From Escherichia phage IdasGreatGrand, in the sequence record PP925829.1: a stretch of 47,946 nt of DNA; one strand, 5' to 3'. The position numbers and the translations under genes were made by a program. Shown here piece after piece: positions 22,629-24,731 of the stretch. Each line of letters opens with the position of its first letter. The stretch's first letter is position 1. The notes beneath the pieces were generated by a model. The model was not told the DNA's origin and did not search any database. It saw only the letters and a program-made list of their open reading frames with translations.

Positions 22629-22728
22629 ATGCAAAGAATTGCAGGTGCATTTCTGCATCTGTGAAGTGAGAAGAGAGTTTGGATTGTATGTGCGCATAAA
22701 CGTCCCCGTTTAGCGCAGAAGTCACCGG
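22629..22728. repeat. direct repeat copy A (~100 bp, ~90% identical to copy B at 24632-24731)
   Basis: Gap-free alignment of 22629-22728 with 24632-24731 done by eye; contains a 7-bp inverted repeat AGATGCA...TGCATCT. Confidence 0.8.
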
Positions 22729-22786
22729 AGTTGTTCAGGCTCCGATGACATGATTATGGCGGGTTGATTATCGCAAATCAAAGGTT

Positions 22787-23143
22787 TTAATTGTGCTTTA
22801 TTCCTTCAAGCGTTGCCTTCATACCAACCAAAGAAATGTTTAGCTCTCCAACTTTCTCAGGGCTATATAATTCAGAATGAAGCCAATATTCTGATTTATC
22901 TAAACATCTTTTAGCCAGCTCTCGATCAAAGTCTACGACTTGGGAAGACGCTTCATACCAAAGCCTATAAAGTTTTTCTTCTTCGTTTGGGTTATTAGGC
23001 TCACCACGTTTTAATTTTTCAGTATATAAAATTGTTGAACAAATCGCAGGAGTTAATCCAGTGATTGCCCTCTGCCGCAGATCGGATTTGTTTGTTATCC
23101 ACCCCAACAGACGATCTCCCATCCATGTGATAATTGTATCCAT
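22787..23143 (-). CDS. hypothetical protein (118 aa)
   Basis: ORF only; no family recognised. Confidence 0.45.
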   Translation of the reverse strand: MDTIITWMGDRLLGWITNKSDLRQRAITGLTPAICSTILYTEKLKRGEPNNPNEEEKLYRLWYEASSQVVDFDRELAKRCLDKSEYWLHSELYSPEKVGELNISLVGMKATLEGIKHN

Positions 23144-23604
23144 GCTTTAGCCCTTCTTAGTAAATAGTGTGTAGGGCGACTGAAGGACCGAGTTTATGCT
23201 TTTTCGCATTGCTTTCAGTTAGTACACCGGTATCGCACCGGAAACAATCCTACGGCAAATTGGTTGTCTGACCTCTCGGTTTTTCGTGCATTAACCGATA
23301 CCCACTACAGTCTCGGCGAAAGCTGCACACCCCCAGGGTGTACTGGTAGCACTCGGCACAGCCTAGCACGCCACTTTCTTCTCACTATCCAGTCTAATTT
23401 TATCCCCTAGTCAGACACTCAGATGTAGTGCTCCGCAGCGGCATGCGGGGGAATACAAAAACTCGGACAAAATTGGGCCCTCCTTTTTGAATCACTCGCG
23501 GGGATGTAGTTATTAATACATGGAAAAAGATCTGTTTTCAAATCCAACATTATATGGTTTCAATACCACGGGGTGGCTATGTGTTTCTCATTGTTATTTG
23601 GAAT

Positions 23605-24213
23605 CTACTGTAATCGATCCGAACGTAAATGCGGCAAAACTCGACTCCACTTATCATCCTGCCAAGGCTGGAATTTTACATGTGCCGTTTCTCTGGCGAG
23701 GATTTCGCGCGCCTTATGTAGTATCTGGGGATATTCTTGCTCGATAGAAGTAAAGCGACCGGCTTCGCGGTGCTCCGCAACCTGAAGAAGTGGAGTAACG
23801 TTCTGGCAGGCGGTTAACATCGTATCACTTGCTCGCCATAACCAAGCAAGTGTGCAAAGTTCGTTATCAGTGAATTGTTTTGTGATCGGGGATTGTTGAA
23901 CTTCTCGATCGAGAATATCCAGAACCCAGCGGCGGAACTCTTTGGCTACAGGAGTTCGTGCAAACATGGCGATCAAATGGGATCCGCGAAGGCTAAATAC
24001 TCGAGACTCCTGCATTCCACGAGGGGTGGTCACTTTGACCACCCTTGTCATCATATCTGTAAATTCATCTGAGTGACGAGAGTAAATGCGCTGAACTGCT
24101 TTATCGTCCGCATATTCCAGAGCTAAACCAACTTCAGTGGCAGTAAGCCAAATTCTGTTATTGTGGCAAATTGGGGTAAACGTCGTTTTGTGGAATGCTA
24201 ATTGAGTAGTCAT
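23605..24213 (-). CDS. Bro-N domain protein (putative antirepressor)
   Basis: N-terminal region (FHKTTFTPICHNNRIWLTATEVGLALEY...VAKEFRRWVLDIL) resembles the Bro-N domain. Confidence 0.65.
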   Translation of the reverse strand: MTTQLAFHKTTFTPICHNNRIWLTATEVGLALEYADDKAVQRIYSRHSDEFTDMMTRVVKVTTPRGMQESRVFSLRGSHLIAMFARTPVAKEFRRWVLDILDREVQQSPITKQFTDNELCTLAWLWRASDTMLTACQNVTPLLQVAEHREAGRFTSIEQEYPQILHKAREILARETAHVKFQPWQDDKWSRVLPHLRSDRLQ

Positions 24214-24363
24214 AGTATCACCTCATCAGGTTAACCATCACCACCAACGACGCCAATCGACTGGTGGTGAACTGTGCAAGGTTGGCGTAACCGGCTACTC
24301 AAACCCGGCGCTCCCGAAGAAGCCCTCACACAGCCCACCATAATTTGGGCGTAGCCGTGCTTA

Positions 24364-24395
24364 GCGCATAAAAAAACCGCTTAACGCGGTATGCG
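24364..24395 (-). terminator. putative rho-independent terminator
   Basis: Minus-strand hairpin ACCGC-gttaa-GCGGT followed by a 7-nt U-tract. Confidence 0.55.
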
Positions 24396-24479
24396 TTGAG
24401 TAGTATTCCGGGACGCCAATCCCGTGTGCCGATTTTGCGGCAACGCACAGAATATAGCGCCGGATAAATAATGTCGTCA

Positions 24480-24572
24480 ACCCTTGCAAATGGGTGGTGC
24501 GATGATCACTACTACCACCATAATCGCTCCAACTGTTGCAACTACTTTAGGCCAAGACATCACGATTTCCAT
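24480..24572 (-). CDS. candidate small hydrophobic peptide (31 aa)
   Basis: MEIVMSWPKVVATVGAIMVVVVIIAPPICKG; single predicted TM segment; followed ~90 nt downstream by a terminator; no family recognised. Confidence 0.3.
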
Positions 24573-24631
24573 ATCACCTTTAGCCGCCAGACAAACAGAG
24601 ACTCCCTGTTCTTGGCTGCCAAAAACACCGA

Positions 24632-24731
24632 ATGCAAAAAATCGCAGGTGTATTTCTGCATCTGTGGAGGGAGAAGAGGATTTAGATTGTATGTGCGTAT
24701 AAACGTCACCGTTTAGCGCAGAAGTTACCGC
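24632..24731. repeat. direct repeat copy B (pairs with 22629-22728)
   Basis: See copy A. Confidence 0.8.

Follow-up and report, generated by a model that had tools for sequence, protein, structure and literature searches.

The stretch of DNA considered here, referred to as the window, is the 47,946-nt sequence of Escherichia phage IdasGreatGrand (PP925829.1), a lambdoid prophage of the phage-82/DLP12-like kind with its early-right operon on the minus strand. Within the nin region of this operon two direct repeats of about 100 nt bracket a 2-kb cassette. In the direction of transcription, the genes O and P, a ren fragment and two further open reading frames (ORFs) are followed by the upstream repeat (copy B), a small peptide ORF, isrK, C4 RNA, an antirepressor-type gene, a 118-aa ORF, the downstream repeat (copy A) and ybcN (Table 1). 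Each repeat copy is part of a ~185-nt minus-strand unit, here named U. An earlier reading of the window, made from its letters without database searches and referred to as the sequence-only reading, took the repeats for either a recombination scar or a duplicated regulatory element. Far from being an inert scar, U is a functional unit that has been conserved and whose RNA covaries, and comparisons between phages indicate that crossovers recur within it, by which cassettes are lost or exchanged.

Positions 22629-22728 and 24632-24731 align without gaps and with 12 mismatches (88 of 100 nt identical), in good agreement with the identity of about 90% that had been claimed for the pair. Among 200,000 random 100-mer pairs of the window the mean identity was 25 (standard deviation 4.5) and the maximum 49. 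A repeat finder placed the pair at 22620-22727 and 24623-24730 (108 nt, 86% identity, spacing 2003 bp), and in this self-comparison it was the sole dispersed repeat of at least 40 nt within the window. The similarity of A and B extends ~25 nt further upstream on the minus strand, with one indel, through the hairpin P1 described below, to ~22750 and ~24753. The surroundings given by the sequence-only reading were also correct: copy A directly adjoins ybcN, and copy B lies downstream of the ren fragment and upstream of the peptide ORF, a terminator and the Bro-N/P22AR C-terminal gene. Its inverted repeat AGATGCA...TGCATCT is exact in copy A, but imperfect in copy B, where the second arm reads TGCATTC. 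The hexamer TACAAT, proposed as a -10 element, is indeed found in both copies, yet it falls within a leader ORF, lacks a matching -35, and is replaced by CCACAAT in the most frequent variants of the element. The conserved promoter is a different one, the predicted sigma-70 promoter TTGATT-17-CATAAT; copy A has it upstream of the repeated stretch, and copy B lacks it. Elsewhere in the window an imperfect direct-repeat array was noted at 42959-43248 (spaced at 21, 42 and 126 nt, with five copies that match a 59-nt reference at 64-78% identity), which probably reflects a repetitive coding region.

Table 1. Features of the nin region of the window, in the order of transcription on the minus strand. 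Bit scores of U are those of covariance model R1.
Feature	Position	Strand	Evidence or remark
O	28138-27119	minus	
P	27122-26421	minus	
ren fragment	26424-26251	minus	57 codons only
VasI/TagO-like ORF, 164 aa	26104-25610	minus	between ren fragment and 140-aa ORF
Membrane-like ORF, 140 aa	25231-24809	minus	followed by copy B
Unit U, copy B (5' part: P1, P2, core/P3), decayed	24628-24762	minus	R1 121.9 bits
Small hydrophobic-peptide ORF, 31 aa (27 aa from second ATG)	24477-24572	minus	
isrK promoter, TTGACG-18-TATATT	24451-24480	minus	consensus scan 10/12; directly upstream of the 5' end of the isrK model
isrK small RNA / a1-b1 target region	24370-24442	minus	Rfam RF01394, 60.7 bits (gathering 50)
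Intrinsic terminator of isrK region	24390-24376	minus	
C4 antisense RNA	24260-24345	minus	Rfam RF01695, 72.7 bits (gathering 45)
Antirepressor-type gene, 202 aa	23605-24213	minus	Bro-N PF02498 1.6e-9; P22AR C-terminal PF10548 1.4e-16
ORF, 118 aa, last cassette gene	22787-23143	minus	ORF list
Unit U, copy A (complete): promoter, P1-P4, leader ORF, to ybcN start codon	22597-22781	minus	R1 170.6 bits on 22625-22758
Palindrome TTGATTATCGCAAATCAA (TTGAT-N8-ATCAA), operator-like	22764-22781	minus	overlaps -35
-10 CATAAT of U promoter	22753-22758	minus	17-bp spacer; consensus scan 9/12
Hairpin P1, copy A: 9 bp, loop CCUGAACAA	22722-22748	minus	50 stem variants, nearly all fold alike
Hairpin P2, copy A: GGGA loop, AUG in 3' strand	22691-22717	minus	loop annotated as leader-ORF ribosome-binding site
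Leader ORF, 33 codons (phage 82 orf33 = K-12 ylcH)	22596-22697	minus	stop overlaps ybcN GTG start (GTGA)
Near-invariant ~36-nt core and hairpin P3 (AGAUGCA...UGCAUCU)	22628-22659	minus	P3 is the inverted repeat of the sequence-only reading
Hairpin P4	22598-22625	minus	buries Shine-Dalgarno GGAGG and first bases of ybcN start codon
ybcN	22599-22144	minus	followed by ninE, ybcO, rusA, ylcG, Q

Copy A is a complete U. Its -35 hexamer (TTGATT) lies at 22781-22776 on the minus strand, and the predicted promoter scores at least 9/12 in 110 of 120 unique A-type copies. The palindrome overlapping the -35 is perfect in 81 of these 120 copies and has one mismatch in another 33, and within the window a perfect match to it occurs at a single place. 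A reading of the palindrome as an RNA hairpin was rejected; because its sequence is conserved and does not covary, as would be expected of a protein site, it is regarded as a candidate operator. Its half-sites would match those of FNR, but at a spacing of 8 instead of 4. The promoter is followed by the hairpin P1, whose loop reads YCUGAAC across variants, and by P2, for which about eight unrelated stems were seen; the P2 loop is always GGGA (GGAA once), with a start codon, AUG or GUG, in the 3' strand. A G-poor, C-rich stretch leads from P2 to the core. The core (UCACAGAUGCAGAAAUGCACCUGCGAUUUU...) is identical in Escherichia, Enterobacter and Klebsiella phages whose flanks share only ~73-77%. 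Last comes P4, which forms in three unrelated linker sequences, enclosing GGAGG and the beginning of the downstream start codon each time, with predicted energies of -12 to -18 kcal/mol and z-scores of -3.7 to -4.8. A consensus scan of U for an antisense promoter gave none.

Homologues of U were gathered from three sources. Viral contigs scanned with a 19-nt core gave 120 loci, species-representative genomes gave ~30 enterobacterial loci together with roughly 17 hits expected by chance, and BLAST gave phages HK639, HK225, phi80, CobraSix, ENT1 and KO-TP1. A covariance model (R1) built from 18 copies found 99 copies in 98 sources and nothing in lambda, Shiga toxin (Stx) phage or Salmonella SW-37 loci. 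U is thus present in more than 100 loci of viral contigs, ahead of ybcN-type, ninB-type and other genes, and in phages 82, HK639, HK225, phi80, CobraSix and KO-TP1 as well as K-12 DLP12. Host genomes with U belong to at least eight genera, namely Escherichia, Enterobacter, Citrobacter, Lelliottia, Trabulsiella, Huaxiibacter, Scandinavium and Pseudescherichia. What directly follows U is always a gene of the ybcN or NinB type, occasionally another gene or, in the B type, a peptide/isrK cassette.

In the model-based alignment of these copies, P1 shows changes on both sides in 8 of its 9 pairs with 97% of cells paired, and P2 does so in 10 of 11 pairs with 99% of cells paired. P3 has 96% of cells paired and changes on one side only, which is what can be seen when loci were gathered with part of the core. 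Overall, 97.7% of cells are paired, compared with 28-48% when the partner columns are slid, and 18 pairs have changed on both sides. None of 500 shuffles reached the observed covariation values. Although this alignment was obtained by fitting to the model, the size of the effect is considerable, and independent folds of the single sequences agree with it. Running RNAalifold on a MAFFT alignment recovered P1 only, the P2 variants being misaligned, a difficulty which the covariance model solved. G-U pairs are frequent in the stems of U, fitting RNA. Neither repeat copy matches an Rfam family, whether at the gathering threshold or at E <= 10.

The leader ORF measures 31-33 codons across copies. 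Of 97 unique copies, 95 keep it open and in frame, although length variants of 11 and 12 codons and three types of linker occur, and in all three linker types its stop overlaps the start of the next gene, as GTGA or ATGA. Variable sites are spread over the three codon positions (15/13/12 and 12/17/12) with no bias toward the third, and the ratio of synonymous to non-synonymous changes is about equal in all three frames, with no synonymous excess. It appears to be the act of translating the leader, or the RNA, that is conserved, and not the peptide. Because the leader stop overlaps the next start, ybcN or ninB is most likely translated only when the leader is translated. At the first nin gene, P4 would hide both start codon and ribosome-binding site and so block independent ribosome binding, while ribosomes on the leader would melt P3 and P4 and then re-initiate at the overlapping start. 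P2 may limit initiation of the leader itself, with the Shine-Dalgarno sequence shown in the loop and the start codon held in the stem. Upstream, the palindrome suggests repression of the U promoter, and the C-rich, G-poor leader, if left untranslated, could serve as an entry site for Rho.

Adequate expression of the DLP12 ybcN-rusA genes requires an inserted promoter (PMC4118853), and a repressed or attenuated leader is consistent with this need. The cryptic prophage DLP12 of K-12 MG1655 (locus L135, 6308-6441) carries a complete U of 172.9 bits before ylcH-ybcN. A separate observation concerns E. coli S21 (locus L133, ~10075-10165), in which an IS3 element is inserted exactly in the P1 5' strand of copy A and removes the U promoter of ylcH-ybcN. 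This insertion recalls the insertion-sequence activations of rusA described for K-12.

Copy B consists of the 5' two-thirds of U, fused once, long ago, to the peptide gene and an immI-like module. After core and P3 it switches to GCAUUCGGUGUUUUU and the peptide gene, and all B copies, which fall into two subtypes, share the 3' junction GCAUUCGGUGUUUU. Copy B of the window is 99% identical to the B copy of E. coli S21 and 94% to those of L120 and L081, but only 87% to copy A of its own genome; for copy A of the window, the A copy in E. coli L9 matches at 98%. The pair in L036 differs in P2 type and shares 54% in an ungapped comparison. Because copy B resembles the B copies of other genomes and not its own copy A, the A/B pair is no local duplication, and B is an old lineage travelling with the cassette. 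The proposal that the repeats are a duplicated regulatory element is therefore supported as to the element, but not as to a duplication within this genome. Compared with intact B copies, those of the window and S21 have lost the promoter and palindrome, GGGA has become GUGA, and ATG has become ATA. In the window the altered P2 loop lies at 24709-24706 and the altered start codon at 24700-24698, and a promoter scan of copy B gave no consensus promoter. Since promoter, Shine-Dalgarno loop and start codon are lost, copy B of the window is probably a decaying leader.

An instance of cassette presence and absence is given by three viral contigs (L043, L069 and L032) that equal phage PhiR26_1 minus its 1.93-kb cassette. 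They are collinear with PhiR26_1 on both sides, with flanks of 96-99% identity except for the downstream (ybcN-side) segment of L032, which has 94%. Their single U follows the B type as far as the end of P1 and the A type from immediately after P2, the switch point falling within a 29-nt block that is identical in both copies, and the U of L043 carries the rare GAGAUG variant of PhiR26_1 copy A. The repeats stand at mosaic joints, and in these close relatives the breakpoint lies inside the repeat, which supports the recombination proposed in the sequence-only reading. Further joints coincide with the edges of U: similarity between E. coli L9 and the window breaks off precisely at the outer boundary of copy B (24730), and for many phages it breaks off at the copy-A -35 (22782). 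Nearly every combination of P1 type, P2 type, linker type and downstream gene is represented. A single copy before ybcN is found in the cassette-less phage 82, E. coli AR_0061 and K-12 DLP12; AR_0061 has the ren/TagO flank of the window, one U and no antirepressor cassette.

The sequence-only reading also stated that phages carrying both copies with unrelated content between them would imply a conserved promoter element and nothing else. Such phages exist, and their arrangement coexists with recombination. L036, L120 and S21 have both copies, but other cargo after the antirepressor, and L108 has two copies of U (6841-6975 and ~10944-11078) around unrelated cargo. One U of L108 precedes a ybcN-like gene and the other a gene for a 271-aa cysteine-rich protein, and the cargo comprises ORFs of 380, 620 and 84 aa, the C-terminus of the 620-aa ORF being a candidate nuclease-bacteriocin-like domain.

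Taken together, we think it moderately probable that U is the control leader of the nin block, that copy B is an older lineage fused to the cassette, and that the invariant blocks serve as recombination patches. The invariant blocks would act as patches of homology for general recombination; crossing-over between B and A would delete the cassette, and exchange with another phage would install one. The cassette would be bracketed by direct repeats because these blocks serve as crossover patches. As such, the pair of repeats is nothing unusual for phages that evolve as mosaics.

Several points weigh against this account. Both promoter activity and translational coupling are read from sequence, translation of the leader is a prediction, and its product is probably unimportant. 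The predicted transcription start, 7 nt after the -10, lies 2-3 nt inside the P1 5' strand, yet the outer pairs of P1 covary; P1 may for this reason act mainly in read-through transcripts from pR. The alignment was model-fitted and the loci were gathered by the 19-nt core pattern, so that P3 and the core are not judged without bias, and the extreme conservation of the 36-nt core is a feature that the account does not explain. No cassette-less relative with the window's own upstream flank was found among complete E. coli genomes or phage records. The chimeric single copies would fit deletion products and an ancestral state alike and do not tell the direction of the event. The longest perfect match between A and B in the window is 17 nt, which is poor for RecA; phage Rad52-like recombinases, however, recombine diverged sequences (PMC3945230).

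Other explanations were weighed against the same evidence. Two direct copies 2 kb apart with 86-88% identity are what a recent duplication within this prophage would leave, by replication slippage or unequal sister exchange and with the copies diverging since, without any B lineage. We find this highly improbable in view of the cross-genome identities of A and B, the junction common to all B copies and the different P2 types within L036; the copies cluster by type and not by genome, which refutes duplication. Conservation of promoter and RNA structure would equally be expected if U were a promoter and leader placed before two independent transcription units, with no role in the gain or loss of cassettes, and the partly unrelated intervening genes of L036, L120 and S21 and the quite different cargo of L108 are in keeping with this. 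It is nonetheless an unlikely explanation, as the chimeric single copies lie exactly at the boundary of cassette presence and absence, homology breaks off at the edges of U, reassortment has taken place within U, and the B copy of the window has neither promoter nor Shine-Dalgarno loop nor start codon. A site for a dedicated recombinase, or a mobile element such as an attC-like folded site or a miniature inverted-repeat transposable element, would move the cassette site-specifically, and P1 and P2 do conserve structure rather than sequence in copies that bracket cargo at several loci. Terminal inverted repeats, target duplications and an associated recombinase gene are all absent, however; the promoter, Shine-Dalgarno sequence, start codon and start/stop overlaps are typical of an expression leader, the frequent G-U pairs fit RNA, and reassortment at several positions of U is what general homologous recombination predicts. 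This explanation seems to us barely credible.

Two further explanations concern the product of U. Were U a small protein gene (ylcH) that has been duplicated, its nucleotide conservation would reflect constraint on the peptide. The ORF is kept in frame through indels and three linker versions and is annotated in K-12 and phage 82, and the leucine codon after the core varies as CTG, TTG, TTA, CTT and CTA. Against these stand the even spread of variable sites over codon positions and the equal ratios in three frames, an N-terminal third that is wholly different between variants, a core invariant in nucleotides across genera, third positions included, the strong covariation of P1 outside the ORF, and the lack of any Pfam or NCBIfam match; we hold peptide constraint to be distinctly unlikely. 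It is less likely still that U is a terminator or a small-RNA gene, the positional equivalent of lambda tR2, with two terminators insulating the cassette. In lambda the intrinsic terminator tR2 lies directly upstream of ninB, a consensus scan picks out, in each copy of the window, a hairpin of 5 bp followed by a U-run, and B-type copies end in GGUGUUUUU. The flagged hairpin is weak, though, and in the folds its U-run is the 3' strand of P3; A-type copies lack a hairpin followed by a U-tract, the leader ORF continues into the next gene, the second B subtype folds poorly (-6.4 kcal/mol, z = -0.95), and Rfam gives no match even at the relaxed threshold.

Beyond the control-leader account, U could, as a speculative extension, represent an undescribed class of phage riboregulator. 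A trans factor would read the core and the GGA of the P2 loop and switch translation of orf/ybcN-rusA, perhaps also read-through at Rho sites, while the same blocks double as linkers for swapping cargo. Such a factor, equally tentative as part of the same proposal, might be an RNA-binding protein of the host, a small RNA, or the leader peptide acting on the ribosome while still nascent.

The cassette between the copies begins with the peptide ORF, in which the second ATG shares bases with the stop codon that ends the copy-B leader frame (UGAUG). This ORF is kept, with an in-frame 6-nt deletion and its hydrophobic character, in PhiR26_1 (L006, 4150-4240) and L036, and in L120 (~470-560) it carries a nonsense codon; the peptide could be a small membrane toxin inactivated differently in different prophages. 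C4 and isrK both score above their gathering thresholds and lie upstream of a Bro-N/P22_AR_C gene, as in immI-type modules, while RF03163 (c4-a1b1) scores 40.6 bits, below its gathering value of 46.7. An ORF of 36 codons (24231-24341, minus strand) shares sequence with the C4 RNA and stops shortly before the antirepressor gene begins, where the P1 and Gifsy-1 modules have icd/orf45. The 118-aa ORF is exchanged for other genes in PhiR26_1, L036, L120 and S21. Neither the leader peptide nor the hydrophobic peptide, nor the ORFs of 118 and 140 aa, matched a family in Pfam or NCBIfam. Copy B was considered as the promoter of isrK and rejected, as the isrK promoter lies 150 nt further downstream. 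The AgvB/AsxR anti-small RNAs and the Pas small RNAs were likewise rejected, being located near PR'/Q or the late genes.

Upstream of copy B some further observations were made. Annotations of the closest E. coli relatives list ren as a frameshifted pseudogene. The 164-aa ORF gives a borderline match to VasI, a type VI secretion family (26.7 bits against a cutoff of 26.5), and in E. coli S21 and AR_0061 its homologue is annotated TagO; such a gene is a surprising one to meet in the early operon of a lambdoid phage. In PhiR26_1 (L006, 2190-3692) a PD-lambda-1 anti-phage defence gene lies on the opposite strand directly upstream of copy B, which makes the interval from ren to U a cargo hotspot holding different morons in different phages.

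The locus offers a sequence-level example of the gain and loss of accessory cassettes in lambdoid phages at copies of a functional leader, not at random sites, and the cassette exchanged is an antirepressor switch that can affect prophage induction. The analysis also brings out a widespread, strongly covarying RNA leader, absent from Rfam, that stands ahead of phage recombination genes and has one copy in K-12 (ylcH-ybcN). U may explain why DLP12 ybcN-rusA is silent unless an insertion sequence supplies a promoter, and it can be studied directly in K-12 by way of the DLP12 copy.

The nearest known counterparts of U are annotated sequences. The orf33 region of phage 82 (X92588) is the same element, with 95% identity between copy A and the phage 82 stretch, and the record annotates orf33, putative -35 and -10 elements and an inverted repeat, labelled "possible regulator-binding site", that equals P1. 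K-12 DLP12 ylcH (b4588) is likewise the same element and overlaps the ybcN start in the same way. Neither record goes beyond an ORF and putative signals: covarying hairpins, sequestration of the Shine-Dalgarno sequence by a hairpin, occurrence across genera, a B lineage and a part in cassette exchange are all absent from them. In the literature on ylcH, phage 82 nin-region promoters and tR2 no paper describing U was found. Lambda tR2, between ren and ninB, occupies the same map position directly before the first nin gene. It has no sequence similarity to U, however, being a GC-rich hairpin with a U-tract, whereas U has a promoter and a leader ORF and no clear intrinsic terminator.

In the mok-hok system of plasmid R1 a leader ORF overlaps the downstream start and the downstream ribosome-binding site is buried in a hairpin. 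U resembles this arrangement in that its short ORF overlaps a gene with a hairpin-buried ribosome-binding site, and the gene downstream of the B copy encodes a hydrophobic peptide, like hok. The two are not related by sequence, neither an antisense RNA nor an antisense promoter was found in U, and the coupling in U is a predicted one. The cassette has the order of P1 immI (c4-icd-ant) and of Gifsy-1, whose published isrK-orf45-anrP layout (PMC4825925) it matches: isrK/a1b1, C4 RNA and antirepressor behind a strong promoter. Here the immI-like module lies in the nin region behind a copy of U and the peptide gene, while in Gifsy-1 it is downstream of antQ, and in Stx phages the isrK/C4/antirepressor module follows ninE without U. 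In mosaic lambdoid genomes generally, morons are accessory cargo carried between core genes, with short conserved stretches as the joints for recombination. The present case differs from that pattern of boundary sequences in that the joint is a functional structured leader and the cargo is bracketed by two copies of it.

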